Shown here piece by piece: positions 7,117 to 44,722 of a DNA stretch of 64,000 bases. The notes beneath the pieces were generated by a model. It saw only the letters and a list, made by a program, of their open reading frames with translations, was not told where the DNA came from and searched no databases. The stretch comes from Bacteroidia bacterium (GTDB taxonomy: Bacteria; Bacteroidota; Bacteroidia; AKYH767-A; 2013-40CM-41-45). The stretch lies in the NCBI GenBank assembly GCA_038230515.1, contig JBBRND010000004.1, positions 125,192 to 189,191 on the forward strand. The letters are read 5' to 3'. A program made the position numbers and the translations under genes. Numbering within the stretch: the stretch's first letter is position 1; each line of letters begins with the position of its first letter.

Positions 7117-7368
7117 TCATACATTTCTTTAGAAGGCACATGCAAAAGGAAAGTATAATCATACAAAAGGAATGTATAGTCATGCAAGTAAAATGTATGA
7201 TCATACAAAAGGAATGTACGGTCATACATTCGTCCTGAAGGTACATACAAAGGAAATGTTTGATCATACATTCGCCCTGAAGGTACATACAAAGGAAATG
7301 TTTGATCATACATTCGCCCTGAAGGTACATACAAAGGGAATGTATGACCATACAAGCTTTGTAAAGCA
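7117..7368. repeat. Tandem array A: 12 x 21-bp palindromic units
   Basis: Consensus TCATACA-N7-TGTATGA. Units start at 7117 and every 21 bp to 7348. 7222-7347 is a near-perfect 3 x 42-bp higher-order repeat. Confidence 0.95.
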
Positions 7369-7544
7369 TCTTTTTGAACTAAAAATGCCATTTTGTGAAA
7401 TTTCTATAAAAACTAATGCCCCCTTCGGGATTATGACTCACATCCCAACTCACAACATCTGACGGCTCAGCAATGCGAAATCCCAACTTCTACCCCACTG
7501 TAGCGGCAGAAAGACTTTAGGAGATGGATTTGCAGGGCTGCATT

Positions 7545-7580
7545 AAAAAAAAAGGACTGCCTTGCCAGCAATCCTTCTTT
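7545..7580 (-). terminator. Intrinsic terminator after queA
   Basis: Minus strand AAGGATTGC-TGGCAAG-GCAGTCCTT followed by a T-run. Confidence 0.75.
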
Positions 7581-7641
7581 CAAATAAATCAATAAAATAA
7601 TTAACCTGTTTCTTCTTCTCTCCCCCTTCAGGGCATTGGGT

Positions 7642-8691
7642 TTAGATAATCAGCATGGCATCGCCATAGCTGTAAAACTTATACTTTTCTTTCACCGCTA
7701 CTTTATACGCATTCATCACGTTGTCGTATCCACCAAAGGCAGCCACCATCATCAGCAACGTACTTTCCGGCATGTGAAAATTTGTGATCATTGCATTTGC
7801 CACGCTGAAATCATAAGGAGGAAAAATAAATTTGTTTGTCCAGCCGTCAAATGGTTTCACATCGCCCTGCGTAGAAACTGATGTTTCGATAGAGCGCATT
7901 ACCGTAGTGCCCACCGCGCAAACTCTTTTCTTGAGCGCGCGCGCTTTGTTTACAATCTCACAACACTCCGCAGGAATAATAACCTGCTCGCTATCCATTT
8001 TATGTTTGGTAAGGTCTTCCACTTCCACCGGGCGGAAAGTTCCAAGCCCAATATGCAGCGTAAGTTCAGCAAAGGTTACACCCTTCAGCTCCATGCGCTT
8101 CATCATCTCCATGCTGATGTGCAAGCCCGCAGTAGGTGCAGCCACAGCACCTTCATGCTTTGCAAACACAGTTTGATAACGCTCTTCATCCTCCGGTTCT
8201 GCTTTGCGCTTTATATATTTCGGAAGCGGAGTGTTGCCAAGCACAGTAATCGCCTTTTTAAATTCCTCATAAGGACCATCGAACAGGAATCGCAGTGTGC
8301 GTCCGCGCGAAGTGGTATTGTCAATCACTTCAGCAACCAGCAAATCATCATCGCCAAAATAAAGTTTGTTGCCGATGCGGATCTTTCGTGCAGGATCAAC
8401 CAACACATCCCACAATCGGCTCTCACGATTCAGTTCGCGCAGAAGAAACACTTCAATCTTTGCACCGGTCTTTTCCTTGTTGCCATAAAGACGCGCAGGA
8501 AATACGCGCGTGTTGTTGAGGATTAAACAATCGCCCTCACCAAAATAACCGAGCGCATCTTTGAACTTCTTGTGTTCAATCTTTCCGGTCTTTTTATCGA
8601 GCACCATTAAACGGGAATCTCCACGGAACTTTGGCGGATGCGTAGCAATTAACACATCAGGCACGTGGGTTTTAAACTGAGATAATTTCAT
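7642..8691 (-). CDS. queA: S-adenosylmethionine:tRNA ribosyltransferase-isomerase
   Basis: [55 protein letters not shown]. Confidence 0.96.
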
Positions 8692-8849
8692 TTTATAATT
8701 TTGGTTTGGAGACTAAAGGGGGTTATTCAGAGGATCACTTTTCCTGAAAATCGGGCGGCAAATATACATTAGCCACCCCCCCTTTGTAAAGGGTTTGTAA
8801 AGAAATATTTTGAGGAGATAATTCAGCCCTTAATGGTTTCGTCCTCAGA

Positions 8850-9497
8850 CTACTTACGGCTGAATTGTGAAGGATCGAGTGCATCTTTCAGTAAAAAAGT
8901 TCCGATTCGGGTACGGCATAAAGAGGCGAGAAACGCCCCGCAGCCCAGTTCCCTTCCGAAGTCATTTGCCAGCGAACGTATGTAAGTTCCCTTACTGCAA
9001 ACTACCCGGAAATGAACCAACGGAAGCTCGATTTTAACAATCTCAAATTCGGTAATCGTCAGTTTCTTCGGCTTCAACTCAAACACTTCCTCGTTGCGTG
9101 CCATTGCATACGCCCTTCTCCCACCAATTTTAACCGCTGAATGTTGAGGAGGCGTTTGCAAAATCTCCCCGATAAACTTTTTTGAAGTTTGATGAACGAG
9201 TTCTTCAGTAATGTGAGAAATGTCTCTTTGCTCCGTTACTTCCGTTTCAAGATCGTAAGAAGCAGTTGTAGCGCCAAGAGAAAAAGTCCCGGTGTATTCC
9301 TTCTCCGCATCCTGAATTTCAGAAATTTTTTTTGTCATCGCGCCAGTGCAAAGAATCAGCAACCCAGTTGCAAGCGGATCGAGCGTACCGGCATGACCGA
9401 TTTTTTCTCCGCGCAACCCATTGCGTATGTATTTCACCACATCGAAAGAAGTCCAGTTGTATGGCTTGTTGATCAGAATTATTTTGTCGGATGTCAT
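8850..9497 (-). CDS. truB: tRNA pseudouridine(55) synthase
   Basis: NKPYNWTSFDVV, GHAGTLDPLATG, CSKGTYIRSLA. Confidence 0.96.
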   Translation of the reverse strand: MTSDKIILINKPYNWTSFDVVKYIRNGLRGEKIGHAGTLDPLATGLLILCTGAMTKKISEIQDAEKEYTGTFSLGATTASYDLETEVTEQRDISHITEELVHQTSKKFIGEILQTPPQHSAVKIGGRRAYAMARNEEVFELKPKKLTITEFEIVKIELPLVHFRVVCSKGTYIRSLANDFGRELGCGAFLASLCRTRIGTFLLKDALDPSQFSRK

Positions 9498-9617
9498 AAG
9501 GGCGGCAAATATAGTCCGTAGATATTAGTTCGTAGTTCACAGTAATAATCAGGCATTTTATTTGAGCACTGTTTCTCAGTTCATGATCAGTTAATAATAT
9601 TCTGTTCACCTTGCACC

Positions 9618-10535
9618 ATGAATATTTTCAGAATTCTACTTCTCCAGTTATTGCTTGTCTCGTTTCTTTCATGCACACCTCAGGCAAATCACACGCCCGG
9701 CTTTCAATATGATCTGCAGCATCCCGTTGCCCACTATGAATTGCCTCATTCGCTTCGCGAGATTTCAGGAATTACTTTTTACAGCGATCACAAACTCGCC
9801 TGTGTCCAGGATGAGAAAGGAAAGATTTATATCTACAACCTGAAAAAAGAAGAAGTAAAAGAAAGCGTTCCCTTCGGTCCCGATCATGATTACGAAGCCG
9901 TGGCACTTGTGAATGATACATTCTATGTACTTCACAGCACAGGAACTTTATTTGAAATTACTCATTTCGATTCTGAAAGCCAGCAAACAAAAAAGTACGA
10001 CACCTTTCTGAAAAAAGAAAATAACACGGAAGGATTGTGTTACGATAGCACCACACACAGTTTGCTTGTTGCATGCAAAGGTGTTTCGCATAAAAAAGCG
10101 AAAGAGGATATAAAAGAAATTTATATGTTCAGTTTGCTTACTGATAAATTAGATAAGAAACCGCAATACAAAATCCATTTAAACGACCTCGAAAAATTTA
10201 TGCATGATCATCACGTTGCAAAGCCGGAGGATGAGCAAGAGCATGAAGCACAAAGCGACAAGTTGAATTCGTTTTTCGAACCATCAGAAATTGCCGTACA
10301 CCCACAGAGTCATGATATTTATGTGTTGAGCAGTGTCGGAAAAATGATCGTTGTTCTAAATCGAAACGGAGAAATAAAAGACGTTGCTACTCTTGATCCC
10401 GCAATAGCCGAACACCCAGAAGGAATGACTTTTTCAAATGACGGTCATCTATTTATTTCTTCAGAAGGAAAGGGCGCGAAGAAAGAGATACTTGAATTTT
10501 CAATATCTACGAATAATGATTTGAAAACGAATTAA
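9618..10535 (+). CDS. SdiA-regulated (YjiK-like) beta-propeller lipoprotein
   Basis: Lipobox FLSC; motifs LREISGI, QDEKG, DYEAV, NTEGLC, HPEGMTF, ISSEG. Confidence 0.75.
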   Translation: MNIFRILLLQLLLVSFLSCTPQANHTPGFQYDLQHPVAHYELPHSLREISGITFYSDHKLACVQDEKGKIYIYNLKKEEVKESVPFGPDHDYEAVALVNDTFYVLHSTGTLFEITHFDSESQQTKKYDTFLKKENNTEGLCYDSTTHSLLVACKGVSHKKAKEDIKEIYMFSLLTDKLDKKPQYKIHLNDLEKFMHDHHVAKPEDEQEHEAQSDKLNSFFEPSEIAVHPQSHDIYVLSSVGKMIVVLNRNGEIKDVATLDPAIAEHPEGMTFSNDGHLFISSEGKGAKKEILEFSISTNNDLKTN

Positions 10536-10571
10536 ATCAATTAGTGAATATCCGTTATGTTAGGGCTCTTG

Positions 10572-11798
10572 TTAGTTATTATAAATTTCTTTATATATAT
10601 TTTCAGCTATACTGAAATTTCTATACCTGATTGCAAAAGATCTTATTTTTTCCGAAAGTAAAGTCAATTCCTTTTCTTTTAAAAGCAAATCAATTTCTTT
10701 AACAACTGTTAAACAGTTTGAATAGTCAAAGTTAAGCATCACAGAACCTATTCCATTTTCTCGAATAATATCTGAATCATCCGAAATATTTTCAGGTATT
10801 ACCACCGGCAAACCAAGAGCCCAATATTCTCCGTCCTTGATTGGGGTACAATATCTCTTTGCCGGAATTGGCTTTACCGGTGAAATTGCAAAATCACCCA
10901 AACCCATGTAAATCGGTACATCCGCATGAGGAACAAAACGAATAACTAACTTATTCAAATCAAATCCACTTTCAGTACACCAATGCTGAATTTCATGCTT
11001 TTCATGAGAAGTCAGAAGTAGCACTCTGAACTTATCTCCCCAAAAGTCTTCTGCCGCCTTAAAAAAATCAAATACCTCTGTCGTATAATAAATGCCCCCA
11101 AACTTGCCAGCATATACACATACAATTTTTTTGTCAAAACAAAATTGCCTCAAAAGTTCATTATTCTTTCGGTTAACCATACAAAATTTCTCTGTATCTA
11201 CACAAGCGGGTTTTACGTAAAATCTTTTAAATAACACACCATATTTTTCCAAGGCATAATCTCTCATTTTTTTTGTAGCACTAATAATTATGGAAGCCCT
11301 TCTTGACAAAAGTTTTTCAAAAAAGAAAAGCAATTTAAACTGAAAACCATTCTCCTTCCATGTTTGATTTTCTACCATTGCTTCAGCATGCGGCTCATAA
11401 CTATCAATAATAAGAGATCTTCCAGAAAAAACAGATAAAAAATATCCAATAGATCCAGCAGGCGTGCACCATGAATGAATAAATTTAATACTTCGAAAAA
11501 AAATAATCAACAACAAGTAAATACTAATTAGAATCCAGTACAGTACACTAAAAATATTTAATTTTCTATAAGGAATGGTAATTAATCTGATTCCTTTAAG
11601 TAATAGCATTTTTTTTACCTGACTTTTCTCATCAATGCTCATTTTCTGGCCAGTTTGCTCCAAAGTGATTAAAAATATCCTACTTCCTAACGGCAATTGA
11701 TCATATATTATATATAAGTAAGGAAGTGTGTACGCTTGAATTAAAGCTTCTTTATAACTCCAAAATGTAATTATTAATATATTCTTTCTTTTTCCCAT
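10572..11798 (-). CDS. Glycosyltransferase (GT-B, GT4-like)
   Basis: KPACVD, VYAGKFGG, PIKDGEYWALGLPVV. Distal gene of the glycan locus. Confidence 0.8.
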   Translation of the reverse strand: MGKRKNILIITFWSYKEALIQAYTLPYLYIIYDQLPLGSRIFLITLEQTGQKMSIDEKSQVKKMLLLKGIRLITIPYRKLNIFSVLYWILISIYLLLIIFFRSIKFIHSWCTPAGSIGYFLSVFSGRSLIIDSYEPHAEAMVENQTWKENGFQFKLLFFFEKLLSRRASIIISATKKMRDYALEKYGVLFKRFYVKPACVDTEKFCMVNRKNNELLRQFCFDKKIVCVYAGKFGGIYYTTEVFDFFKAAEDFWGDKFRVLLLTSHEKHEIQHWCTESGFDLNKLVIRFVPHADVPIYMGLGDFAISPVKPIPAKRYCTPIKDGEYWALGLPVVIPENISDDSDIIRENGIGSVMLNFDYSNCLTVVKEIDLLLKEKELTLLSEKIRSFAIRYRNFSIAENIYKEIYNN

Positions 11799-11897
11799 GG
11801 AAAAAATTTAAATATCTGATCTTATTTAGTGGGTTATTAATTAAATTTTTGTAAGAGCTGAATTTTACAGCATTGAAACATTATGTTTATTTAAATA

Positions 11898-12830
11898 CTA
11901 TTTTTTAAACATATAAAACATAAGTTCTAATGATTTTCTCCCTATTAAAATTTTAATAAGCAAAACAATATATTTAAGTCTTAATCCTCCTAAATAAATT
12001 GCTCCAATTATAAATCTCAGCCCTGTAATTTGTTGAAAGTCCAAATAACTATGAATTGCACAAAAATAATTTACATGTGCGCTTAATGCCTTTCGTTCAA
12101 TAACATTTAAATTAATATTCGACACGATCCAGGCCATTGCTAGGAAGGTTTTCTCAATTAATAATTCGTTATTCCCGCGCATGGAACGCCTCTCATGATC
12201 CAACATAAGTATCGTTACCTGATCTACCAAATACAGTTTTTGATGTCTTAAATTTTGAAGAAAAAAAACCCAGTCCTCCTTAATAGAATATCGTCTGTCT
12301 TCAAAAAACAAATAAAGTTTTGAATTTGATTTTTTTACACAGACATTACAAGCCAATGGATTTCCCTCTAGAAAAAGTCGGTAATCATAATAGCCTTCTG
12401 GATATTTAACAATTGAAGAGTCTTTTCTTTTATTATTTCTAAGAAATTGAAACTTCGCTGCAATGAAATCAGGGAAATCACATTCTTCTATCTTACTTTT
12501 TAAAACACTCAAATGGTTAGAAGTCAATCGATCGTCAGAGTCCAGAAATACAACATACAGTCCGTTAGATTCTTTAAATCCGCGGTTCCGCGCTGCTGCA
12601 CGTTCCAAATTTTGTTGATTTATTAATCTTACTTTAATATTTAAACAAAAGGTCAATTCCAATTTTTCTCTCGTTCCATCAGTGCTTCCATCATTAACAA
12701 TAATTATTTCAAAATTTTCATACTTTTGATCAAAAATACTTTTTACAGTTTCAATAACTAATTCATATCGATTATATATCGGGATAACAATACTAAAGAA
12801 AGGTAAATTAATATCACAAGGTTTGATCAT
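11898..12830 (-). CDS. Glycosyltransferase family 2
   Basis: FSIVIPIYNR, VNDGSTD, AARNRG, FLDSDD. Confidence 0.9.
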   Translation of the reverse strand: MIKPCDINLPFFSIVIPIYNRYELVIETVKSIFDQKYENFEIIIVNDGSTDGTREKLELTFCLNIKVRLINQQNLERAAARNRGFKESNGLYVVFLDSDDRLTSNHLSVLKSKIEECDFPDFIAAKFQFLRNNKRKDSSIVKYPEGYYDYRLFLEGNPLACNVCVKKSNSKLYLFFEDRRYSIKEDWVFFLQNLRHQKLYLVDQVTILMLDHERRSMRGNNELLIEKTFLAMAWIVSNINLNVIERKALSAHVNYFCAIHSYLDFQQITGLRFIIGAIYLGGLRLKYIVLLIKILIGRKSLELMFYMFKK

Positions 12831-12952
12831 CTGGTAATTCTTCTCATTGGATTAATTATAAATGTTGGAACATAATTATTACACGAAATGAAATAGGTTT
12901 AAGTTGTCTCTCATTGTAAAATTCTAAGTCAGGTTCCCTAGTAAAATTTATA

Positions 12953-13917: not shown

Positions 13918-14110
13918 TAAAAATTTAATATTCTCCTAGTATGCAATTTTCTATCAAAGGCATAATGCATTTGAATCATTAAATCGAGATAATTTAACAC
14001 AATTTTTTAAAAAGTCTCGTGATCAAAAATCAAGCTATGTTTATACAAATAATCGCTTCCTCCCAATAAATCATATTCCTTGAAGACATCATAATATGCC
14101 TCTCCTCCAT

Positions 14111-14790
14111 TCACAAAGCGCAGAAAATTCGAGAATACATTAATCCACTCCATTCTAAATGAAGTCTGCTGGGAGACGTATTGCTGAACCTTCGCAATCT
14201 ATATTTCGAAATAATTTCATTTGTAGCAACAATTTCGTAATTCAGTATTGTCTTTACAAGAAGATCATAATCCATTACAAAGTTGAGATTCTCATTTAAA
14301 AATCCTTGCTCTTTTAAAAGATGTCTTCTGAAAAAAGAAGAAGGTTGTAGAAATGTAATTTTTGAAAAACACCTAATCCATAAATCCTTAGAACTAGCAC
14401 CACTAATCTTTTCTTTTTTTTTCATTAAATAGAATTTATTTACCATAAATCATTGTAACATTAAAATCATTCCGAAAAAGTGCAGCAACTTTTTATGAGC
14501 ATCGGATGTATAAAGATCATCACTACAAAGCCACCCGATAACATCTCCCGAGGACAGCTTTATCCCTTCATTAATTGCATAACTTTGTCCGCTATCTGGC
14601 TCACTAACCCAATATTTAATCTTGCTTTGATACTTGCGCATAATATCAATCGAGTTATCAGAACTCCCACCATCAATAATAATATATTCCAAGTTAAGAT
14701 AATCTTGACCTAATACTGAATTAATCGTTTCGTCACTAAACTGCCATTGATTAAAGGACGGAGTTATTATTGAAATTTAGGGTAAATCAT
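14111..14790 (-). pseudogene. Frameshifted glycosyltransferase family 2
   Basis: ATG at 14790 gives MIYPK, then a frameshift to IITPSFNQ...LEYIIIDGGSSDNS...SEPDSGQSYAINEG...WLCSDD, then another shift to LQPSSFFRR...MDYDL. Decays toward the IS. Confidence 0.85.
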
Positions 14791-14796
14791 AAAAAC

Positions 14797-17057: not shown

Positions 17058-17059
17058 AG

Positions 17060-28548: not shown

Positions 28549-31500
28549 TTACATCTTCACAATCTTCTTCGTTGTAACAGAAAAACCTGTAATAAGATTA
28601 AGTTGATACACATCAGGCGGAAGTGAAGAAAGATCAAGAAGAAGTTTTTGCAACCCGTCCTTAAGAGAAATTTCTTTTTCAATCACGATTTGTCCGATAG
28701 CATTTGATAAAACAAACTTCACGCTTCCACCTTCAGTTAAATTCAGATCAATGGAAACTGCCGAGTAAGTAGGATTCGGATAGATTCCGATGATTTCATG
28801 ATGATTGGAAGGATCGCAATTGGCAAGAATATTAACTGAGTAAGAAATCTTTCCGTCATAATCCACTTGCTTCAAACGATAGTAAACGTTCTGAGCTACT
28901 GCTTTATCATTTGCTTCGTAATAATGCTGTTCTGTTGAAGTACCGTTACCTTTCACAATTGCAATTTTTTCAAAATTTTCTCCGTCAAAACTTTTCTCCA
29001 ATTCAAAGTGATCGTTGTTTATTTCGCTCGCTGTTGTCCAGTTGAGAATGACATTTTCATTATTGCAATCAGAAGTAAAGCTTATTAGTTCTATCGGAAG
29101 CGGAATGGATTGGGGAGAAATGTTGAAGTTTTCAGTGTTGAAAATATTCCATGCTGATTTTGTCACACTTGATAATGCAGGAGAACCTGCGCCTGTGTTC
29201 GCAACAAGTCCCAGATCATTCCATCTCACCGGAGGAGCCATTGGCCCCCACTCTGTCATCAGGTTGGTGGCAAAACTTACTACGCCATCAGCCACGTTAT
29301 CATAATAAAGTTTGATGTCAGTTACTGTTGTACCGCTTATTTTATTGATTCGCTGATACCATAGCGGATTAATAACCCCTAAACTCGGATCTTTTACTGC
29401 GCGGTTGTATCCCTGAGTATTCGGATCGTTGTTTACAAACCGAACACCAAATGTAGAAGTAACGGTACTTGTCGGTTTTATTTCTACAGGACGATAGCGT
29501 GCCACGCCAAGGGCAGAGCCAACGGGATAAACATACGCACCTGTGCTGTTTGTATTTCTCCAAAGCTTCCCGTTATTTGTGCTGCTTACAAAACCTTGAA
29601 CGGGTATAGAATTAAACCCTCCTGTTCGAGTGATCGCACCAACTGCGGTGTTGGTTACATACATCACATAATCATTTGTAGCAAGTTCGAGATCATTCAA
29701 AGCAAGTGTACCTTCAGTGTGTGCATCCACTGCCTGAGATTTTACCCCCGTTCCTAGCAACGTGAGGTTATAATAATAAGTAGGCGTTGATCCGAGAATT
29801 CCCTGCGCGCTTCCGCCAAATATTGTAGTACCAGGACTTGAATTGATGAAACAATTGCTCGCAGAATTATTTGTCCAGTCACCTTGCAATTGGAATGTTC
29901 CGCTATTATCAATGTTGCCGATGTTTACTCCATTGTCCTGATTAATGAACCCGCCTTCATCGTAAATCAATGCACCGGGTTGAAGGAAAATGAGAGATCC
30001 ATCATTCACAATCAATCCGCTTCCAGCGCTTGGGCAATTCTGAACAGTGATATAATTGACGGTCGTCTTTGTATTATTTCCAAATGCATTCGTAGCTGTA
30101 AGCGAAACCGTATAGGTCCCTGCCGCTGCATAATTCACTACAGGATTTTGTAAAGCAGATGCACCGGGTGCTCCACCTGCAAACGTCCAACTCCACGAAG
30201 CAGGTCCTCCGGTAGAAAGATCAAAAAAGTTTACATCCTGTCCCGCACATATAGTCGTTGGTGCACCTGCAAAATTTGCAGTTGGTGCCGAACATGCATT
30301 GACAGTAATATAATTGGTACGGGTTAAAAAGCTTGTACCACTTCCATTGGAACATATTAGTGTAACCGTGTAAACTCCTGTTGCATTGTATGTGATCACC
30401 GGATTTTGTGCAAGTGATGTAGTGGGAGTTCCTCCGGCAAATGTCCACTGCCAAGAATTCGGAAAGCCGGTAGAAAGATCGCTGTATGTTACACTACTGC
30501 CAACACAAACCGTAGTTGGTGTTCCGGTAAAATTACAAACCGGTGGAGGCGGACAATTATTAACCGTGATGTAATTTACTATTGTTTTCGTATCAGTACC
30601 GTAAGCGTTTGTAACCTGAAGCGTAACGTTGTAAACTCCGGCTGCTGCATAACTTACAACAGGATTTTGCAATCCAGAAGCCGCGGGAACTCCACCAGGA
30701 AATGTCCATGCCCACGTGGTTGGTGTGTTCGTACTCGCATCAAAAAAAGAAACTGATTGCCCTGCACATAATGTAGTTGGCGATCCCGTAAAGTTAGATG
30801 TAGGCGCACAATTATTTACTGTGATATAACTTGTCTTTGTTCTCGTATCAGAGCCGGAAGCATTGGTTGCAGTAAGTGTTACCGTATAAACACCGGGTGC
30901 ACCGTAAGTAACTGTCGGATTTTGTGCACCAGAAGCGGCAGGTGCTCCTCCGGGGAATGTCCAACTCCATGATGTAGGAGTATTCAAACTTGCATCTGTA
31001 AAATTGACGGTGAGGGGAGCACAACCTGATAACGGATTACCAATAAAATCTGCGGTAGGCGCATTAAGTGTGCAGTTAGCTGGAGTCAATGCAATCATTG
31101 GAGCAGGACCACATGCATTTGCAATTACACTTCTGCTCATGATGTCATTGCCGCCTGCGACCTCACTTCCTGCGGTGAGTACGCGTCTTGTAATTCCATT
31201 CGAAATAGCATAGTTCATTACTGTTACGGGAAGAATCGTATGACCTAATTGATGACTATGGCCCAATTCATGAACACAAACCGATTCAAAATCATATTCT
31301 GCAAAAGCAGGAAGGGCAGGACCATACTGCCATGTAATTCCTCCGGTACCATTTGTGCGGAACTTCAAATCATTTTCATTGAGATACCAAACGCCTGCTC
31401 CACAACCTGCATAATAGCTGTATGAAATTCCGAGCACGCCTGCGGGTACTGCACACGAACCGTCAAACGTTACAATGTTGCTGCCATCCAACGCCTGACA

Positions 31501-32583
31501 GGTAATAGGAGTGGTTCCGCTTCGCGTAAAGTTTACATAAGTGGCGCAACGCCATGTCTGCAATGCACGTTCCCATGCCTGCACCGCAGCAGGAACAGCA
31601 TTAAATGTTGTGTTGTATTTAAAAGTATAGCCACCCGCCCCATTCTGATTGATCAAATGAGGTTGATAGTAAACTCCGCCACTTACTACGTTTGATTCAT
31701 TGTAATTGATGGTGAGATTAATTCCTGAAACTGTGGTTTGATTCAGATCATTGGTGATGCGAATAAATCCACTTCCTGCACCTGTTGGCACCCATGCCTG
31801 AATGGTTGTTGCGTTCCAACTGATGATGTGATTTGCGGGAGTAGAAATATATCCTGCTCCTCCATTGTTCGCATCTGGAAATTCAAGATTGGTAGTCCCC
31901 GCATAAGCAGGACCAAAGTTTGATCCGGAAATGGTAATGGTGGAAAATGTTCCCGCTGTTGTTGCAGCAGGAGCGATTCCTGTAATAGTAGGAAACGCCT
32001 GTATTTGGTTTCCTCCGCCACCATTGCTCTGTGAAGGAAACACGAGTGAAGCAATCTGTAAATAGCTGCTTCCTGTTTGTTGCTCAATTACATCAATCAA
32101 ATCGTTTTGAATATCTGCGTAGGAAGAATAAAGATCAAACGCTGAATGATTACTGAGATCGTACTTTACAAATGATTGTTGTGATGATGTTCCTTTGAAC
32201 TGAAGATTGGTTGAGAGCGTTGATGTCGTGTTGAAAACATCGGGCGAAGTCAAAAAGAAAATTCCGGTTTCGTTGTCGTTCAATTCAAGATTCGGCTCAG
32301 CAACAATTTTTGTATTGCCGATTTCACCTCCTTCATTGATGAGTTCAATGTGCGTAGAATTTATTCCTCCCTTGAAAACTTTGTAAACATCAATCTGAAA
32401 ACTTGTGTAAATAAAATCGTGATTCGCATTCCAGAAACTCTGCTGTGAAATTACTTTGCCTTCTACAATGGCTGTTGCGTCACTTATTCTTTGCGTGAAA
32501 GGAACAGGAAAGGTGAGGCATTGAGAATAAATTCTCAATGAATAAGCAAACAGAAAAAAGAGAATGAATAATTTTTTCATCAA
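28549..32583 (-). CDS. T9SS-secreted metzincin-type metallopeptidase with IPT/TIG-like and four PKD domains
   Basis: Signal peptide; HELGHSHQLGH with Met-turn VMNY; four repeats of F.D.S...PT.W.WTFPGG...QNP.V.Y...G.Y.V.L; PLPIELISF; IYPNP...KIVK type A CTD. Confidence 0.85.
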   Translation of the reverse strand: MMKKLFILFFLFAYSLRIYSQCLTFPVPFTQRISDATAIVEGKVISQQSFWNANHDFIYTSFQIDVYKVFKGGINSTHIELINEGGEIGNTKIVAEPNLELNDNETGIFFLTSPDVFNTTSTLSTNLQFKGTSSQQSFVKYDLSNHSAFDLYSSYADIQNDLIDVIEQQTGSSYLQIASLVFPSQSNGGGGNQIQAFPTITGIAPAATTAGTFSTITISGSNFGPAYAGTTNLEFPDANNGGAGYISTPANHIISWNATTIQAWVPTGAGSGFIRITNDLNQTTVSGINLTINYNESNVVSGGVYYQPHLINQNGAGGYTFKYNTTFNAVPAAVQAWERALQTWRCATYVNFTRSGTTPITCQALDGSNIVTFDGSCAVPAGVLGISYSYYAGCGAGVWYLNENDLKFRTNGTGGITWQYGPALPAFAEYDFESVCVHELGHSHQLGHTILPVTVMNYAISNGITRRVLTAGSEVAGGNDIMSRSVIANACGPAPMIALTPANCTLNAPTADFIGNPLSGCAPLTVNFTDASLNTPTSWSWTFPGGAPAASGAQNPTVTYGAPGVYTVTLTATNASGSDTRTKTSYITVNNCAPTSNFTGSPTTLCAGQSVSFFDASTNTPTTWAWTFPGGVPAASGLQNPVVSYAAAGVYNVTLQVTNAYGTDTKTIVNYITVNNCPPPPVCNFTGTPTTVCVGSSVTYSDLSTGFPNSWQWTFAGGTPTTSLAQNPVITYNATGVYTVTLICSNGSGTSFLTRTNYITVNACSAPTANFAGAPTTICAGQDVNFFDLSTGGPASWSWTFAGGAPGASALQNPVVNYAAAGTYTVSLTATNAFGNNTKTTVNYITVQNCPSAGSGLIVNDGSLIFLQPGALIYDEGGFINQDNGVNIGNIDNSGTFQLQGDWTNNSASNCFINSSPGTTIFGGSAQGILGSTPTYYYNLTLLGTGVKSQAVDAHTEGTLALNDLELATNDYVMYVTNTAVGAITRTGGFNSIPVQGFVSSTNNGKLWRNTNSTGAYVYPVGSALGVARYRPVEIKPTSTVTSTFGVRFVNNDPNTQGYNRAVKDPSLGVINPLWYQRINKISGTTVTDIKLYYDNVADGVVSFATNLMTEWGPMAPPVRWNDLGLVANTGAGSPALSSVTKSAWNIFNTENFNISPQSIPLPIELISFTSDCNNENVILNWTTASEINNDHFELEKSFDGENFEKIAIVKGNGTSTEQHYYEANDKAVAQNVYYRLKQVDYDGKISYSVNILANCDPSNHHEIIGIYPNPTYSAVSIDLNLTEGGSVKFVLSNAIGQIVIEKEISLKDGLQKLLLDLSSLPPDVYQLNLITGFSVTTKKIVKM

Positions 32584-32589
32584 TGAAAA

Positions 32590-34074
32590 TTATTTTTTCA
32601 CTTCCTCTTTTTTCACCGGCAGTGGTTCCTGTTTAGGAAGGTCATATCCATAAACTACATTATCAGAAGGCCAGTGCCAGATCTTTGAGTATTCGGGTTG
32701 ATTTTTCGCTTTAGCTTTCATCGGTTCTTTATCTGCTTTTAAACCGGCAGGGCCTGGTGCCTGCATAAAGCGTCCTTCTCCATAATTTGTTTTGGGTTTA
32801 ACAACTAACTGATATTCGAGAGTTCCGGAATGAGTTCCTCCGTTAAGTTCTAATATGTCGAATCCTCTTTCTGTGCGGTTTGTAATTGTTACTCCGTTAA
32901 AGGTCGGCATATCAACGGGTGTGCAGAATACGCGAAGCGGGTTTTCTTCATTCACAAAAATAATATCTGCAAGAATGGGATCCAGATCAACGTGCGTTCT
33001 GCCATTTGTCAACACAGCAGAGCCATAATCCTGGTACCAGTATTCCGGTGACTCAGGACAAGTTAAAATAATTCTTCCATGATCAGGAGTTGGAACAATT
33101 TCGCTCACGGTTCCGCTACCTGCAATCTTTCTGTTTAGTCCTGCATTTGCAACATACGCAAATGCAAGATTTGCACCTCCATAAGTATTCGATTCAAAAT
33201 AACCGCCCGTATTCAGGTTACCGCCAATATCACAATACGTGCGACCGATAACTCCTAATGCATCCTGAAACTGACTGCTTGCAATGCCTGTTTCTCCCAC
33301 GCTATAGGCCGTATTTCCTGCAATTGCTCCTCTGTTCAAATATCCGGTTACCGCAGACTCAAATGAAGCAGATCCGAAGTTCACAATTTCATTCAACTGC
33401 CCGTATAACGCAGGAGGATTAAGTGTTGTGCTTGAATTATCAGTACCGAAATATCCGCCAATCCAAACATCTGAATAAGCAATGTTAGCTGCATAAGATG
33501 CCGGATTGCGCGTAACTGCTATTAAAGATGGATTGTTTGTTGCGGTTCCTTCTTCAGAATAAACTACTGCACCATTTGTGACTCCAAAAGTTCCCAATGA
33601 GATTGCACCCCCAAAACCAAGATAGCCAGAACCAAAACCAGTTTGAGTTCCTCTTATTGCAACTCCTGCTGCAACTTGTACGTGAAATTTTGCCAATGGA
33701 GCAACCAATCCAATTCCAACATTTCCGGTAGCTAAAACTCGCATCTGTTCAGTGTTATTTGTTTTTACAACAAAATCATTTCCATCAACTGTTCCGATGA
33801 AATTTGTTGCTGCCGTAGTTCCTGCATTTCCCAAAATAGTCCATGCCGGATTTGTAGTGCCGGGAGCAACGGAAATAATAAGCGTTCCATTCGGATCTGC
33901 CATCACTATTCGATTACCAATACCGGCAAGTGTAGTAGAGCGAATATTGCCTACCACATGAAGTTTGTCGAGAGGAACTCCGGTTCCTATTCCAACATTT
34001 TGTGAAAATACAGAAGATGTAATACTGACAATACAAAACACCAGCGCTAAGCGCGAAATGAAAAATGATTTCAT
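32590..34074 (-). CDS. Secreted Gly-rich fibre/adhesin-like hypothetical protein
   Basis: Signal peptide, NVGIG...KLHV repeats, W.ILGNAGT...NFIGT...KTNN, C-terminal PESPE.WYQDYG...LDP domain. ATG at 34074. Confidence 0.7.
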   Translation of the reverse strand: MKSFFISRLALVFCIVSITSSVFSQNVGIGTGVPLDKLHVVGNIRSTTLAGIGNRIVMADPNGTLIISVAPGTTNPAWTILGNAGTTAATNFIGTVDGNDFVVKTNNTEQMRVLATGNVGIGLVAPLAKFHVQVAAGVAIRGTQTGFGSGYLGFGGAISLGTFGVTNGAVVYSEEGTATNNPSLIAVTRNPASYAANIAYSDVWIGGYFGTDNSSTTLNPPALYGQLNEIVNFGSASFESAVTGYLNRGAIAGNTAYSVGETGIASSQFQDALGVIGRTYCDIGGNLNTGGYFESNTYGGANLAFAYVANAGLNRKIAGSGTVSEIVPTPDHGRIILTCPESPEYWYQDYGSAVLTNGRTHVDLDPILADIIFVNEENPLRVFCTPVDMPTFNGVTITNRTERGFDILELNGGTHSGTLEYQLVVKPKTNYGEGRFMQAPGPAGLKADKEPMKAKAKNQPEYSKIWHWPSDNVVYGYDLPKQEPLPVKKEEVKK

Positions 34075-34347
34075 ACTATGAAGTTTTAAGCACATTAAAT
34101 AACGTTACAAAACTATAAATAATAATCATAGATTGAAAACATACTATTTAAATACTTATCAGATTTTGGCGAACAGCGGTATTTAATTGGTAAAACAGCA
34201 GAAAAGAAAGGCGAAAATTGAAATTGTTATCATCTTCGATTTTCAACATTTAATCGTTTGTTTTTTATCTTAGATAAGCTTTGCTGCAACTTCTTGATTT
34301 AGTCGGCTTAATTGATATTTACATCAAAAACAATTTTTTTGATCTGA

Positions 34348-34635
34348 AATAGTGCTATTTATACTACCCAAAGCACTATTTATACTATCCAGAACACTAT
34401 TTCTGAAAGACAGTGTACTATTTGTTTTATCAAGGGTGCTTTCTCTAATCTCTAAAGTACTACAGAGAGATTGATACTACTATTTCTATTATGCAGAATG
34501 CTTTTGTTAATATCAAATAGTACTCAGAAGATTCTAAATTGTGCGATGGAGGTTACGCAGAGTACGATAGCAATTGCTGATAGCACGTTCTGTATTATCA
34601 AAAGCACTCTTGACGATAAATGTAGTGCGATAAAA
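34348..34635. repeat. Tandem array B: ~14 x 21-bp degenerate palindromic units
   Basis: AGTACT/AGTGCT/AGCACT-type cores at 34351, 34372, 34393, 34414, 34435, 34456, 34476, 34497, 34519, 34540, 34561, 34582, 34603 and 34624. Consensus AATAGTACTATT + 9 nt. Confidence 0.8.
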
Positions 34636-37022: not shown

Positions 37023-37050
37023 ATTAGTTGAGCATTTTACCTTGGAAAAT

Positions 37051-37083: not shown

Positions 37084-37088
37084 AGATT

Positions 37089-37180: not shown

Positions 37181-37207
37181 AACTTCCTTGAAGAGGTGTT
37201 TTGCAGA

Positions 37208-37606: not shown

Positions 37607-37846
37607 TTTTTTTTTGGTTTTTTAAAGATTAAATTATTTGTTTGATTTATGATGCAAATAAACAGCAAATGCGAAGTGTTGTAAATGACAAATGAGCAAT
37701 TGGTAACGCTGGAAGGATAATTAGCAGCAGGGGAATGTAGTTTGTAAAATTATTTGCAGTTCAGATTCTGCCTTCCGCTTTATCACTTCCCCTAATGGGA
37801 GGCATTGCACGCCTTTTACTTTCTTACTTTTGTTCGCACTTCTTCC

Positions 37847-39952: not shown

Positions 39953-40071
39953 GCATGAATATTAAAGGACATTATTTCAAAAAAGGTTAAAAAAAATCTT
40001 TTTAATTTTGCTTAACAATATCCGCTGATCATCGTTAAAATGAGCAATCACATTATCAAAAACAATTAAAA

Positions 40072-40671
40072 ATGAAAAAGGCAATTCTAAAAAATCTCTC
40101 TTTCCTAGTGTTACTTGCAGCGCTTGGTATTTCAACAACGAGCAAAGGAAACGATCCTGCGTTTGACAAGGGCTCTAATACGATTGGTATTTCCATTGGC
40201 TTAGGCAGACCTTACGATTATGATTTTCTTGCACCTGCTTTCGCAGTTAGTTTCGACCATGGTTTTTTTGGCCATGTTGGTCCTGGTACAATTGGTATTG
40301 GGGGAATTGTTGGTTTGAAAATGAGCTATGATAGATTAGGGGAATTTGATCGCAGTTTGACAAGCATTATTATTTGTGCAAGAGGCGCTTATCATCTTAC
40401 GATTCTAAAAGATAAAAATAATAAGTTTGATCCTTACGCTGGAATTTGCTTGGGTTTAAGAATAAATCATTATTCTGACCCTTACTATGATAACTATTAT
40501 GGTGCCCATCACTCTTATCCTTATTCAAATTCTCACCATGGTGCTGATCCGATTATTGGCCCTTTTGTTGGAGCGAAGTATAATTTTACACCTTACTTCG
40601 GAGCATTTGTAGAAGTGGCATATGATTTTTCTAATTTGAGAGGAGGTCTCAATTTCAACTTCGGGAAATAA
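40072..40671 (+). CDS. Outer-membrane beta-barrel protein
   Basis: Signal peptide, alternating beta strands, DPYAG, terminal GLNFNF. Confidence 0.75.
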   Translation: MKKAILKNLSFLVLLAALGISTTSKGNDPAFDKGSNTIGISIGLGRPYDYDFLAPAFAVSFDHGFFGHVGPGTIGIGGIVGLKMSYDRLGEFDRSLTSIIICARGAYHLTILKDKNNKFDPYAGICLGLRINHYSDPYYDNYYGAHHSYPYSNSHHGADPIIGPFVGAKYNFTPYFGAFVEVAYDFSNLRGGLNFNFGK

Positions 40672-40695
40672 AAATCAGAAGAAAAACTATTCAAT

Positions 40696-40725
40696 AAAAC
40701 CCCCGGCAAGTTGTTGGGGGTTTTT
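40696..40725. terminator. Bidirectional intrinsic terminator
   Basis: AAAACCCCCGGCAA-G-TTGTTGGGGGTTTTT between convergent genes. Confidence 0.75.
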
Positions 40726-40815
40726 AATGCAGAATGAAAAGTCGGATTTTTTGCTAAACTGAAAAGTTGAATTGCCTTGCTAAAACCTGATAGAACTAGC
40801 CAGAGAATTTTAGTG

Positions 40816-41715
40816 CTACTTCTTCGCCATTGCTTCGCTCTTCACCACTTCAATCTCATATATCAACGTGGAAAAAGGCGGGATGAAATACGTGAATGTA
40901 TTTGGTTTTTTTATCCCTTCACTTCCGTAAGCAAGCGAAGATGGAATAATGAGTGTTGCTTTATCTCCCTCGTGAAGTTTTTGAATAGCCCAATCCCATG
41001 TCTTCATCACTTCCTTGCGACCGGCAGTAAATGAGTAGGGCTTCGGAGATTTTACATTGCTGTCGAACACGGCACCGTTTAAAAAATACCCGGAATAAAT
41101 TACCGAAACCCTTGTGCCGGCTGTTATGAGTTTTCCTTTTCCGGCAGTGGTTATGTTGAGGTAATATCCTTCCGGCTGTTTTTCAGCAGGGATATTTTTT
41201 TCTTTCATGTATTCTTCGAGCGCCTTTTTTTCTGCCTGTTCCTGTTTACTTTCATTCATGGCAATTTCCATTTCAGCTTCCCGGGAGGATTGCACGCGTT
41301 CGAGCGAAACATCAAACTTTAACACGCTACCTTTCTCAGGACGGTTTTTAAGAGGGTCGTTCGCTTCCTTGCTGATTACTTTTTCGAACATGGAGTCCGC
41401 GGAAATAAAAAATGTGGCGCTGTCGCCTTCGCCAATACAGGCAATTCCTTCTTCGAAGCTGCCGATAAATTTTGGAGCCGGCAATGCAAAGCGCAATGGC
41501 TTACCGAACTTGCGAGAATCGAAAAGCACAGAGTTTTTATTGTCACTGTAAACCATATTTACCGTTACCCAATCGCCTGTGTTCGGTTTTTTGCCGTTAG
41601 CTTCACGATAGACACGGTATTTCATTCCCGATTTTGTTTTCAACTCTTTTCCTTTTTGGCAAGAAAAGAAAACGAAAACAAATGCAGAGAGAAAAATGAT
41701 ACTGAAGTATTTCAT
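40816..41715 (-). CDS. FKBP-type peptidyl-prolyl isomerase, two domains, lipoprotein
   Basis: FFSC lipobox, LFDS, FEEGI, Y.GYFLNG.VFDSN, IIPSSLAYG, IPPFSTLIYEIE. Confidence 0.9.
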   Translation of the reverse strand: MKYFSIIFLSAFVFVFFSCQKGKELKTKSGMKYRVYREANGKKPNTGDWVTVNMVYSDNKNSVLFDSRKFGKPLRFALPAPKFIGSFEEGIACIGEGDSATFFISADSMFEKVISKEANDPLKNRPEKGSVLKFDVSLERVQSSREAEMEIAMNESKQEQAEKKALEEYMKEKNIPAEKQPEGYYLNITTAGKGKLITAGTRVSVIYSGYFLNGAVFDSNVKSPKPYSFTAGRKEVMKTWDWAIQKLHEGDKATLIIPSSLAYGSEGIKKPNTFTYFIPPFSTLIYEIEVVKSEAMAKK

Positions 41716-41718
41716 TTT

Positions 41719-42249
41719 TTATTTTGTTGGTATTTCTGTTTTCAGGAGATGCACATCGTAGTACAACGGAACGCCTGCAGGAATTTTTGTTTCGTCACTG
41801 GTGATGCCATGCGTGAGGTGAGAGGGAATTACAAACCGTGCGTGCGCGCCCTCAGTCATAAGCATCAAACCCTCTTCAAGCCCTAACGTTTGTGCTCCGG
41901 TGCCGGGAACAAATTTTTCAGGACGCTGTTCGTCTGCATCGTAAATTAATTTCGCATCGAGAAGAAAAACTTTGTAGGAAATAGTGAGGATGCATTTTGA
42001 AACCGGCTGCTTCCCGTTTCCCTGCCCGTAAACTTCATAGCGCAAGCCGGTGCCTGTCATCTGCATTTTCCATTCGTGCCTTGCAATGAATTCCTGAATT
42101 TCTTTCGCTTCGTCATGAACAAGAATTTTATTTGCATTCACCAAATGCTCTTGCAGCTCGGCATCCGATTTTTTTTCTTCAGGGTAATGGCGCTGGCAAC
42201 CGTATTCAACAAAAAGAAGAAGGCAGGAGAAAATAAAAAAATTTTTCAT
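41719..42249 (-). CDS. FKBP-type peptidyl-prolyl isomerase (GldI-like lipoprotein)
   Basis: TGLRYE, GLEEGL, VIPSHL..G, IP..PLYYDV. Confidence 0.8.
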   Translation of the reverse strand: MKNFFIFSCLLLFVEYGCQRHYPEEKKSDAELQEHLVNANKILVHDEAKEIQEFIARHEWKMQMTGTGLRYEVYGQGNGKQPVSKCILTISYKVFLLDAKLIYDADEQRPEKFVPGTGAQTLGLEEGLMLMTEGAHARFVIPSHLTHGITSDETKIPAGVPLYYDVHLLKTEIPTK

Positions 42250-42255
42250 CTCTTG

Positions 42256-43278
42256 CTACACCAGTTGCGCTTTATACTCCGGCAATAGTTGAATAAACTT
42301 CTGAATGGTTTCTTCCAACGTAAGATTTGATTTTCCACCTGCTGCATTCTTGTGCCCTCCACCTTCAAAATGTTTTTGAGAAAGTTGGTTGGCAGGGAAA
42401 TCGTCCTTAGAGCGGAAAGAAATTTTTATCAACCCATCGCGATCAGAGAAAAATGCAGCGAGTTTCACGTTGTTAATGCTGAGTGCATAATTCACGATGC
42501 CTTCTGTATCTCCCGTTTCAAAATGATACTTGTTTAATTCTTCCTCGCTGAGAGAAATGTAGGCAGTGTTAAATTCGCGGAGCACAACCAACTTATCATT
42601 CAGGCAATGCCCAAGCAAACGCAAGCGGTCTTCTGTGTTTGTATCATACACCAACTCATGAATTTTGTAATTCACTGCTCCGGCTTCCATTAGTTTGGCA
42701 ACAGTGCGGTGCGTGTCGGCTTTCATGCTTGCAAAGCGGAACGATGCGGTGTCCGTCATGATGCCGGTGTACAAACACTCGGCAACATTTTTATTCAGCA
42801 GCGGACGATCGTCCATGGCAATCATAAATTCGTAAATCAATTCTGATGTTGCGCATGAATCAGGAAATGAATACGAATGATCAAAAGAATTTTCCGGATT
42901 GAGATGATGATCTATCAAAACTTTTACAGCTTTTGATTCACGAACGCTCTTCTCCATTTTCTCAACGCGCCTCATGTCATTAAAGTCAAGACAAAAAATT
43001 AGTTCTGCTTCGCTGATGAGCTGATCCGATTTTGCAACTGCCGCTTCGTAATTGATGACAACATCATTGCCCTGCATCCATTTCAGAAACGCAGGATAAT
43101 CACTCGGCACAATTACATTCACATCATGATTTTTCTGAATTAAATAATTGTAAAGCCCTAGCGAAGAACCAATGGCATCGCCATCAGGACGGTGATGTGT
43201 GGTAATCACAATCTTTTTCTTTTCACGCAAAAGAATTTTTATGGGAGCAATGAGCTTGACTTGAAAACGTGGATCCAT
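42256..43278 (-). CDS. nrnA: DHH/DHHA1 phosphoesterase (NrnA-like oligoribonuclease)
   Basis: HHRPDGDAIGS, IDHH, GIMTDT, SFRS, GGGHKNAAG. Confidence 0.9.
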   Translation of the reverse strand: MDPRFQVKLIAPIKILLREKKKIVITTHHRPDGDAIGSSLGLYNYLIQKNHDVNVIVPSDYPAFLKWMQGNDVVINYEAAVAKSDQLISEAELIFCLDFNDMRRVEKMEKSVRESKAVKVLIDHHLNPENSFDHSYSFPDSCATSELIYEFMIAMDDRPLLNKNVAECLYTGIMTDTASFRFASMKADTHRTVAKLMEAGAVNYKIHELVYDTNTEDRLRLLGHCLNDKLVVLREFNTAYISLSEEELNKYHFETGDTEGIVNYALSINNVKLAAFFSDRDGLIKISFRSKDDFPANQLSQKHFEGGGHKNAAGGKSNLTLEETIQKFIQLLPEYKAQLV

Positions 43279-43515
43279 TGGGGCGTAAAAGTAACTGAAT
43301 TCTTATTCTGGAAAAGAGATTTGGGTGATTAGGAAATGAATCAGTTTGAACAAAAATAATTGGTCATCTACGAATACGAACAGGATCGAATATACGAATG
43401 AATGCAGATTCATAAATTAATAAAGATTCGTTGATGAAACAGCTAAAACCAAACCGAGTCACAACCAATTAACTTAATCAACTAAATTACTACTTTCGCC
43501 ACCCGAAATAAAATT

Positions 43516-43932
43516 ATGTCGAACAAAACATTTACAATGATAAAGCCCGATGGCATTGCCAACGGACATGCAGGTGCCATACTTGATAAAATAATTAAAG
43601 CAGGTTTCCGGATTGCTGCGATGAAATACCTTCAGCTTACTCCGGAACGTGCAGGGCAGTTTTATGCCGTTCATAAAGAGCGCCCGTTTTACAACGACCT
43701 GGCGAAGTACATGAGTTCAGGCGCCATCATTGCCGCTGTTCTTGAAAAAGCAAATGCTGTGGAAGATTTCCGCACGCTTATCGGAGCTACCGATCCGGCT
43801 AAGGCAGCGCCCGGAACCATTCGCAATCTTTTTGCAAAAAGCATTGATGCAAACGCTGTACATGGAAGCGACAGCGATGCGAATGCAGACATTGAAGCAA
43901 ATTTTTTCTTCTCCCGGTTTGAGAGGTTTTAA
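43516..43932 (+). CDS. ndk: Nucleoside-diphosphate kinase
   Basis: [28 protein letters not shown]. Confidence 0.98.
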
Positions 43933-43947
43933 CCACTCACTGCTTTT

Positions 43948-44304
43948 CTAAATCTTCGGAATCAGTTTCATAATTTTTGTTTTTTGCTGGCGGGCTACCG
44001 GCAGTGTGCTGCCGTCTTTCAGGACAAGGTAACCGCCATTTCCGCGCGTATATTTTTTTATAAAGTCCGGATTTACGAGGTAAGAATGATGGGTGCGTAT
44101 AAAATGATGAGCTACCAGGAACTCTTCAAATTGTATAAGCTTGCGTGTCACAAAAATATTTTTTCCTCCGGTGATGTACACACTCGCATAATTACCGTCC
44201 GCTTTGCAATACATAATCTGGCTTACGTTCAGAAATTCAAACCCGTCAGCCACCGGAACGGCAATGGCATCAGGAAAATGTTTGTTGGTTTTTTTTGGTT
44301 TCAT
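43948..44304 (-). CDS. Stand-alone LytTR DNA-binding domain protein
   Basis: IMYCKADGNY, FIRTHHSYLVN, LPVAR. No receiver domain. ATG at 44304. Confidence 0.85.
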   Translation of the reverse strand: MKPKKTNKHFPDAIAVPVADGFEFLNVSQIMYCKADGNYASVYITGGKNIFVTRKLIQFEEFLVAHHFIRTHHSYLVNPDFIKKYTRGNGGYLVLKDGSTLPVARQQKTKIMKLIPKI

Positions 44305-44565
44305 TACTGAGATGGATTTAATTGATTGGATTATTTTTTTCAAAAAAAATAAAACTGCATCAATCAATAAAAATATTTTGGCGAGTGTACGTTTTCAATA
44401 GGCGGACAACTGCATTAAATATACTACCAACCGTACATCCGTTTCGACATGCTGCATACTTTCGGTATGCATGCGCAAAGCGTGCATATACTTTTGGCGG
44501 CATATTTTAATTGTGACAACTGAAAAATGAAACGCAGCAGAACTTTACTGAAAAATATTCAAGCA

Positions 44566-44722
44566 CCCGGGAGGTTTGTTGAAGCGTTCCACAAGCTTAT
44601 GGAAGGTTTCCACAGGTTTGTGGAAGGGTTCCACAAGCGTATAGAATGGTTCCATAAGCTTATGGAGAGTTCCAATAACCTTATGGAAGGGTTCCACAAG
44701 CTTGTGGAAAGTTTCCATAAGC
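44566..44722. repeat. Tandem array C: ~7 x 21-bp palindromic units
   Basis: Consensus TTCCACAAGCTTGTGGAA + 3 nt. Units at 44587, 44608, 44629, 44650, 44671, 44692, partial at 44713 and degenerate at 44566. Confidence 0.95.

Follow-up and report, generated by a model that had tools for sequence, protein, structure and literature searches.

The window analysed here is a stretch of 64,000 nucleotides (nt) from a Bacteroidia bacterium (assembly GCA_038230515.1, contig JBBRND010000004.1, positions 125,192 to 189,191 of the forward strand), whose genome (4.37 Mb in 69 contigs, Bacteroidota) derives from sediment and soil metagenomes. It contains three tandem arrays, designated A, B and C, for which an original prediction made from the letters alone had proposed one shared design, a period of 21 bp with palindromic units. 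Array C is followed by a gene of an uncharacterised family, here called family A. Throughout the text G000 stands for the source genome and the other G numbers for comparison genomes, L numbers for fetched loci, and 21n for a multiple of 21. The features on which the analysis centres are the following, with Tandem Repeats Finder abbreviated to TRF:

7117..7368, no strand: array A, about 11 units of 21 bp in a 42-bp higher-order repeat, with the dyad TGTATGATCATACA as conserved core (TRF and sequence).
34348..34635, no strand: array B, degenerate, about 14 units in which only a GYRCK core is kept in register (core count, TRF and Logan contigs).
44566..44722, no strand: array C, 6.8 units of 21 bp, each with the dyad TTCCACAAGCTTGTGGAA plus 3 nt (TRF and sequence).
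44895..45584, plus strand: family A gene, 229 amino acids (aa), predicted as an N-terminal helical bundle and a C-terminal FN3-like sandwich (AlphaFold2, AF2; predicted local distance difference test score 90.5).

The three arrays are present where they had been placed, A and C being recovered by TRF and by the sequence itself and B by the register of its core. As had also been claimed, all of them are intergenic, lying between open reading frames (ORF) of at least 100 aa, and their sequences are mutually unrelated. Array A is reported by TRF at 7139-7354 with a period of 21, a 42-nt higher order, 3.6 copies, 91% matches and a score of 243, and its palindrome TGTATGATCATACA is read at 7194-7207. 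It separates the 3' end of queA from the 5' end of ispD and has paralogues at C5:147765 and C31:22527 of the source genome, with which it has only about 60 nt of flank in common. The ispD-queA spacer measures 709 bp in the source genome versus about 90 bp in G001 and G002, which belong to the same genus. In G003 the corresponding spacer (L023, G003:C507, 2060-2580) was observed to carry a different insertion of about 470 bp that splits the queA terminator and is bordered by a duplicated AAAAAATCCGTTAC, resembling the target-site duplication of a small mobile element.

Array C is reported at 44581-44722 with a period of 21, 6.8 copies and 76% matches; its palindrome TTCCACAAGCTTGTGGAA is read at 44692-44709 and its end is separated from the family A start codon by 172 nt. 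The region is conserved in 0 of 40 relatives (a tally that includes G038, a genome counted only here and in the family A genome tally given below). The array is homologous to those upstream of the family A orthologues in L044, L047 and L048, with double changes that preserve the dyad. A GC-rich element with nested palindromes (CCCCTAAAGGGG ... CCCTTTAGGG) is placed between array C and the start codon, at 44755-44840. This element is absent from the orthologous spacer of L044, and BLAST detects no second copy of it in the genome at E<=0.001; a stretch of similar appearance stands beside an array on C26.

Array B is degenerate and TRF reports only 34355-34402 (2.3 copies). Between 34352 and 34629, however, its 5-nt core GYRCK, part of AGYRCT, returns strictly every 21 nt: a pattern of three such cores, 21 apart, matches 15 times in the window, 13 of them inside the array (34351-34629), and 0.38 matches are expected for the whole window. 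The 12-bp palindrome AATAGTACTATT attributed to this array is an idealised consensus, whose best copy is AATAGTGCTATT at 34348-34359 and of which the array holds only 2 copies within 2 mismatches. The register claimed for array B is thus confirmed and the palindrome is weak. The array is flanked by a 501-aa gene and a rhomboid gene, both diverging from it, and the genes that lead away on the minus strand are:

28549..34095, minus strand: the 501-aa gene without family (32590-34095), then a 1344-aa protein sorted by the type IX secretion system (T9SS) (28549-32583).

An assembly artefact was considered and rejected. Logan contigs, an independent k=31 assembly of two runs, both of which may be the source of this same DNA, reproduce array B whole and array C with a contig break at 44613-44625, with zero letter differences in either. 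The same design is found in isolate genomes and in assemblies whose contigs are named in various ways. The imperfect copies and the presence of higher-order structure also disfavour an artefact.

The three arrays are members of a class that is spread over the whole source genome. TRF yields 907 merged loci, 269 of which have a 21n period and cover 51,402 bp (1.2% of the DNA); their median length is 189 bp and 198 of them reach at least 100 bp. The best period is 21, 42, 63, 84, 105 or 126 in 82, 89, 34, 37, 4 and 14 loci, respectively, whereas other periods above 20 are almost absent and there is hardly any other class of minisatellite, in agreement with the proposed enrichment of period 21. 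A typical array has about 10 units and 200 bp. The typical unit combines a conserved core of about 10 nt with a variable part that alternates among two or three types, which explains the higher orders of 42, 63 and 84, and the matches between copies range from 51 to 98% by TRF. Sequence diversity between arrays is large. The 198 long arrays fall into 93 blastn components, including 54 singletons, and neither a motif common to all units, nor a shared leader or flank motif, nor an enriched word in the 150-nt flanks was found. The composition (A 0.29, T 0.28) is somewhat richer in GC than that of the spacers, with an excess of short palindromic words (CGCG and ACGT among them). It is strongly supported that A, B and C belong to one class of locus-specific direct-repeat arrays with a unit of 21 bp or a multiple of it, sharing one design.

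The palindromic character of the units, proposed as part of that design, is upheld in part. A perfect stem of at least 6 is present in 52 of 175 units versus about 16 expected from shuffles; palindromy is therefore enriched and not universal, with a consistent inverted repeat of at least 5 bp in 20 of 43 oriented arrays and a weak one in array B.

Short heptanucleotide tandem arrays (7 nt, about 4 copies, many sequences) are also common, at 83 loci of G000, 11 per 100 kb in G008 and 8 per 100 kb in G011; they therefore occur as well in genomes without 21n arrays. Repeats of the heptamer TAACTGA, which may be related, are reported from Beggiatoaceae, Cyanobacteria and five Bacteroidetes (PMC4679880).

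The family A protein has no match in Pfam, NCBIfam, PHROG or PADLOC and no signal peptide was seen in it. Its fold search returns FN3 matches only, and the ESM Atlas holds only unnamed clusters for it. At E<=0.001 the family comprises 2511 representative clusters (50% identity), almost all of 225-235 aa, and no relatives were found in IMG/VR viral contigs, in phage records or, by tblastn, in 72,556 plasmid records. The distribution is patchy and multi-copy: 5 of 41 related genomes have 7-12 matches each, and none of four genomes of the same genus has any.

The sequence upstream of the family was studied at 80 public loci, which come from Bacteroidota, Verrucomicrobiota, Methylococcales and Zoogloea. 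Of the 76 loci whose upstream sequence was long enough, 45 have by TRF a 21n array no more than 700 nt upstream. When the 400 nt upstream are autocorrelated, 21 or 42 comes out as the best lag at 65 of 74 loci, with 33/35 in Bacteroidota, 15/18 in Verrucomicrobiota, 10/13 in Methylococcales and 3/3 in Zoogloea. The enrichment at homologues of 44895-45584 that the original prediction had proposed to look for was found: a z21 of at least 3 is reached upstream of 64 of 74 homologues and of 4 of 301 control ORFs of the same loci. Four related genomes show lag 21 or 42 in 15 of 16 loci. The distance between the end of the array and the start codon has a median of 98 nt and the array itself a median length of 206 bp. 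The recurrence of the arrays in these four phylum-level groups, together with the genome-wide 21n class, substantiates the claim that a shared constraint acts on the geometry.

In 48 of the 80 public loci the family A gene is followed by an ORF on its own strand, and many of these ORFs have signal-peptide-like N-termini (judged by eye and uncounted). The gene in this position in the window is:

45768..47837, plus strand: Kelch/PKD protein with a T9SS C-terminal sorting domain, a secreted cargo (Pfam).

Cultured carriers of the family include Flavobacterium sp. SUN046, Zoogloea ramigera NBRC 15342 and Zoogloea oleivorans Buc.

Family A is not the only family of this kind. The genes of G000 that have an array no more than 400 nt upstream number 13/18 in family A, 6/6 in fam6, 4/9 in fam7, 9/17 in fam8 and 14/24 in fam4b, compared with 191/3248 for all genes. 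Profile comparison detects no homology among the five families, and the 501-aa gene beside array B has no similarity to representatives of fam4b or fam8. All 12 of the 12 fam6 loci taken from four other genomes have a 41-42-nt array 5' of the gene. The fam6 structure consists of long helical hairpins and a beta sandwich. The proteins of family A and of fam6 alike are helical over a long N-terminal part and end in a beta sandwich. Fold searches with the two families give only FN3 or cupin-like domain matches, and neither family matches a PDB sequence below E 0.3. Across phyla, at least two uncharacterised accessory families, family A and fam6, are constantly accompanied by an upstream array. 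No description of this pairing, of bacterial 21n arrays or of a named system for them was found in the literature searched, supplementary files being outside the search, in line with the original prediction, which knew of no such system.

The occurrence of the arrays in genomes follows that of the families. Of the five genomes searched for fam6, G016, G028, G032 and G037 gave matches and G002 gave none; fam7 is uncommon, with 3 of 301 genomes in a sample drawn from the whole phylum. The densities of arrays per 100 kb are 29 in G028, 17 in G016 and 9 each in G032 and G037, all family-positive, and 6 in G000, although the carrier values may be inflated because the sampled contigs also carry family genes. 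On the other hand, no 21n arrays were found in the samples of G002 (80 kb), G008 and G011 (100 kb each) and G001 (25 kb), and G004 (71 kb) has only three short ones, two plainly built of heptamers and one of low complexity. G008 and G016 belong to the same genus, and arrays and family A were found only in G016. Array-rich genomes are carriers of family A and fam6.

Within the source genome the arrays occupy spacers of every type, 44 divergent, 77 tandem and 35 convergent, with 21 more not placed in a spacer. They are typically found in the middle of a spacer of about 650 bp, and free-standing arrays are bordered on either side by about 140-200 nt of spacer. Among 312 array-flanking genes, 59 belong to a single large blastp cluster of proteins of the secreted type. 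The source genome contains at least 150 Por_Secre_tail (T9SS sorting) matches above the cut-off, among 437 first-look candidates, and T9SS neighbours are consequently enriched mildly at most. A sigma-70 scan upstream of a Methylobacter homologue returned nothing.

Three candidate functions had been named for the arrays: a phased protein-binding platform, a repeat-processed RNA and the product of an enzyme that builds such units. Of these, the protein-binding platform fits best. The arrays would be helically phased, locus-specific DNA-binding platforms tied to accessory gene cassettes, a reading that is held tentatively and given somewhat less than an even chance. Each unit would be a putative binding site, often dyad-symmetric, and a spacing of two helical turns would bring all the sites to one face of the helix. 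A cognate factor would bind cooperatively just upstream of the cassette promoter and, once bound, would set the expression of the family gene and of the secreted-protein gene that often follows, the typical cassette order being the array, the helical/beta-sandwich protein and then often the secreted protein. The unit sequence, specific for each cassette, may co-diverge with the gene and so give orthogonal control, and array length would change by whole units. Many other intergenic regions of carrier genomes, those of A and B for example, may have received arrays by spread or given rise to them.

Candidate binders for some arrays of the source genome are short LytTR proteins, one of which is encoded next to array C:

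43948..44367, minus strand: short stand-alone LytTR-domain DNA-binding protein, divergent from array C (Pfam LytTR, E 1.1e-16; isoelectric point, pI, 9.9).

In G000, the distance to an array is no more than 400 nt for 7 of 12 LytTR genes, the background being 501 of 3248 genes (15%) within 600 nt. An array is present at identical coordinates beside a LytTR gene in C20:155-422 and C61:155-422, which may be one locus assembled twice; in that case the tally becomes 6/11, and the binomial tail of 3.8e-4 refers to 7/11. The array-adjacent proteins are mostly short and stand-alone, and short forms of this kind were observed in array-rich genomes alone. The published LytTR sites consist of direct repeats of 9-10 bp separated by spacers of 11-12 bp, giving a 21-bp period (PMC2766830). 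Promoters of the AgrA, ComE, PlnC and SilA type have these direct repeats 21 bp apart from start to start, upstream of the promoter. Arrays A and C have the same period by TRF and array B the same core register, and a LytTR gene adjoins C and six other arrays. The known sites are pairs, whereas the arrays here have 5-20 units (7-14 in A to C), many of them dyad-symmetric, and 77 of the 80 public loci have no LytTR gene.

Several observations weigh against the binding-platform reading. The family A protein is acidic (pI 5.8) and has no known DNA-binding fold. The sequence types of the arrays, 93 components among 198 arrays, far outnumber the candidate regulators. A LytTR gene is present in only 3 of the 80 public family A loci, and G028, the densest genome, has only two of them for 32 arrays in the 109 kb sampled; LytTR proteins therefore explain some arrays at most. 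More than half of the oriented arrays lack the consistent inverted repeat mentioned above. Many arrays are not proximal to a promoter, since 35 lie between convergent genes, and in tandem spacers 47 of 77 are closer to the end of the upstream gene, with no bias to the start of the downstream one. In G028 (L179, G028:C6, 10716-14965) two small genes and a double 21n array (14258-14627) are located between ORFs whose likeness to nuoL and nuoK was judged from N-terminal sequences only, so that arrays can sit inside a core operon. The possible inflation of the carrier densities and a strand bias of stop-free stretches, given below, point in the same direction.

Since 21 nt are also seven codons, the arrays had been expected to give heptad peptides on both strands. 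They might thus be small heptad-repeat (7-aa) proteins or fragments of coiled-coil genes, the palindromes being incidental. All the periods are multiples of seven codons, and array C lies inside an 84-aa ORF (44527-44781) on the strand of the next gene. Of the 198 long arrays, 124 are placed between ORFs of at least 100 aa, 48 make up most of the ORF that contains them, 21 are enclosed in larger ORFs and 5 are partial cases; coding was tested on the 177 arrays outside larger ORFs with column-permuted arrays as the null. Open frames are slightly commoner than in the null (about 1.96 versus 1.66 per array), and the longest stop-free stretch is greater on the strand of the gene in 52 loci and on the other strand in 22, a split that hints at some strand-specific property. 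On the other hand, 28 of the 177 arrays have stops in all six frames, with 35 in the null, and the codon score of the best open frame (0.095) resembles that of the null (0.092) and not that of real genes (0.25). The differences between copies do not follow codon position (z -0.09, n=121), and proline is found in many of the deduced repeats. On the strand of the gene no frame is free of stops in the arrays of L069 and L072, and in L069 this applies to both strands. The heptad peptides were not borne out, and a coding origin is considered very improbable. The bias in stop-free stretches would also suit arrays that function as transcripts: a repeat RNA, produced together with the downstream gene or before it, in which every unit would be bound or cleaved once, in the manner of type III toxin-antitoxin systems or protein-sponge RNAs. 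ToxIN-type systems likewise have a repeat array upstream of a protein gene. The fixed position directly upstream of the accompanied gene, the free-standing arrays that resemble small genes with their spacer on each side, and weak skews (C>G in 31 and A>T in 30 of 44 arrays, p about 0.09) fit this reading as well. However, when arrays are oriented with the gene the mismatches in the stems are 25 G-T and 30 A-C, without the bias of RNA wobble pairs, 6 of 20 dyads are loopless (they run through the centre), and about half of the arrays have no stem. Complementarity of the units to the downstream 900 nt at p<=0.05 is limited to 1 of 44 arrays in antisense and 3 of 44 in sense, that is, the units are not complementary to the downstream gene. 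Rfam at gathering thresholds matches none of the three window arrays, and the partner proteins have no nuclease fold. The arrays upstream of four orthologues (52-62% protein identity) are alignable, with 72% column identity, and keep the dyad: 76.1% of the cells are paired versus 68.0 +/- 1.6 in shuffles and 28-42% in slid controls, and double changes affect 31 cells versus 14.6, values that 0 of 500 shuffles reach in either case, although both counts overstate independence because the aligned rows are related copies. A dyad kept by double changes, the absence of wobble bias, the loopless dyads, the lack of complementarity and the closed frames together favour arrays that would act as double-stranded DNA sites; a function as RNA is regarded as unlikely.

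The remaining candidate, a unit-building activity, makes the arrays a by-product. A lineage-specific repeat-building process (slippage, or a recombinase or polymerase with a 21-nt ruler) would arrive with the accessory genes, most of the copies being neutral or selfish and some of them put to use. The abundance of the arrays is all-or-none and off the phylogeny, as seen in the same-genus genomes that lack family A and in G016 and its congener G008. The units are unique to their loci, with many singletons, the arrays enter every type of spacer and the inside of operons, and array A lies in a spacer that is much longer than its counterpart in G001 and G002. Pervasive, locus-unique tandem repeats that arise from local sequence are also known from Borgs (PMC9879509). 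A neutral origin, however, leaves unexplained the constant position about 100 nt upstream of the gene in four phylum-level groups, as well as the slow, dyad-preserving divergence of orthologous arrays. No candidate enzyme was found, the array-linked families having no catalytic signature, and selection for helical phase alone would yield the 21n class with no need of a ruler. This origin is judged rather doubtful as an account of most arrays. A broader proposal is a horizontally spreading, cross-phylum system in which helical and beta-sandwich families would each be paired with their own 21-bp-phased array as nucleic-acid partner, a ruler mechanism would build the arrays from local sequence and carriers would fill at least about 1% of their DNA with them. 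It is possible, though well short of probable, and if true, both the pairing by which protein and array recognise each other and the process that generates the repeats would be of a new kind.

The nearest analogues among known systems, namely LytTR sites, sopC-type centromeres, type III toxin-antitoxin arrays and Borg repeats, each fail at least one defining feature. In type III toxin-antitoxin systems (ToxIN, CptIN, TenpIN) the protein gene is immediately preceded, on its own strand, by a non-coding tandem array whose repeats differ between homologous loci; the units have about 34-45 nt in 2-6 copies and the protein is an endoribonuclease. The position directly upstream of a same-strand gene and the repeats that vary with the locus are features in common with the arrays described here. 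By contrast, the present proteins are helical bundles with FN3 or beta-sandwich domains, the stems show no wobble bias that would point to RNA, and for many arrays a partner gene is lacking. This candidate was rejected, as Pfam, NCBIfam, PHROG and PADLOC give no ToxN/AbiQ, CptN or TenpN toxin and the AF2 model is a helical bundle with FN3.

[quoted passage not shown] REP sequences form one sequence family per genome and CRISPR have repeats of 21-48 nt that alternate with unique spacers of at least 30 nt. The number of components and singletons and the lack of a shared flank word led to the rejection of REP/BIME, for which RAYT genes were not searched. CRISPR had already been discounted in the original prediction, rightly: there are no unique spacers, the whole unit has 21 nt and its variable part of about 11 nt alternates among two or three types (cas genes were not searched for).

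Plasmid centromere and iteron arrays resemble the present ones in their tandem units of about two or four helical turns, a palindrome per unit, an adjacent partner gene and replicon-specific sequences. The sopC centromere of F, for example, has 12 units of 43 bp, and SopB binds the 16-bp inverted repeat that every unit carries (PMC3177203). The differences are that the genes flanking the window arrays are those of LytTR, family A, ndk and the Kelch protein, with no ParA/ParB or Rep gene, that hundreds of arrays occur per chromosome and that their partners belong to no known family. The absence of an adjacent ParB, ParR or Rep gene and of family A from the plasmid and phage records searched led to the rejection of this class. 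Borg repeats are described as perfect, A-rich, of many unit lengths, intergenic as well as genic and genome-specific (PMC9879509). They share with the arrays the pervasive, locus-unique occurrence and the seeming origin from local sequence. Here, by contrast, the copies are imperfect, with 55-95% likeness, the composition is not A-rich, the period is always 21n and the arrays are tied to gene families; Borg-type repeats were rejected on the first three grounds.

If confirmed, the arrays and their partners would be a widespread element that is invisible to current annotation, the arrays being uncalled and the partner proteins labelled 'hypothetical'. A strict physical rule, two turns of the helix, combined with a free choice of sequence would allow many orthogonal protein-site or RNA-site pairs per cell. 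The subject bears on gene regulation and on how environmental Bacteroidota and Verrucomicrobiota control their secreted and surface proteins, it could supply parts, and it raises the question of how some genomes make hundreds of unique arrays of one period while close relatives make none. Elsewhere in the window, the sole Rfam match is a S-adenosylmethionine (SAM) riboswitch, RF00162, with 74.6 bits at 62810-62930 on the minus strand.

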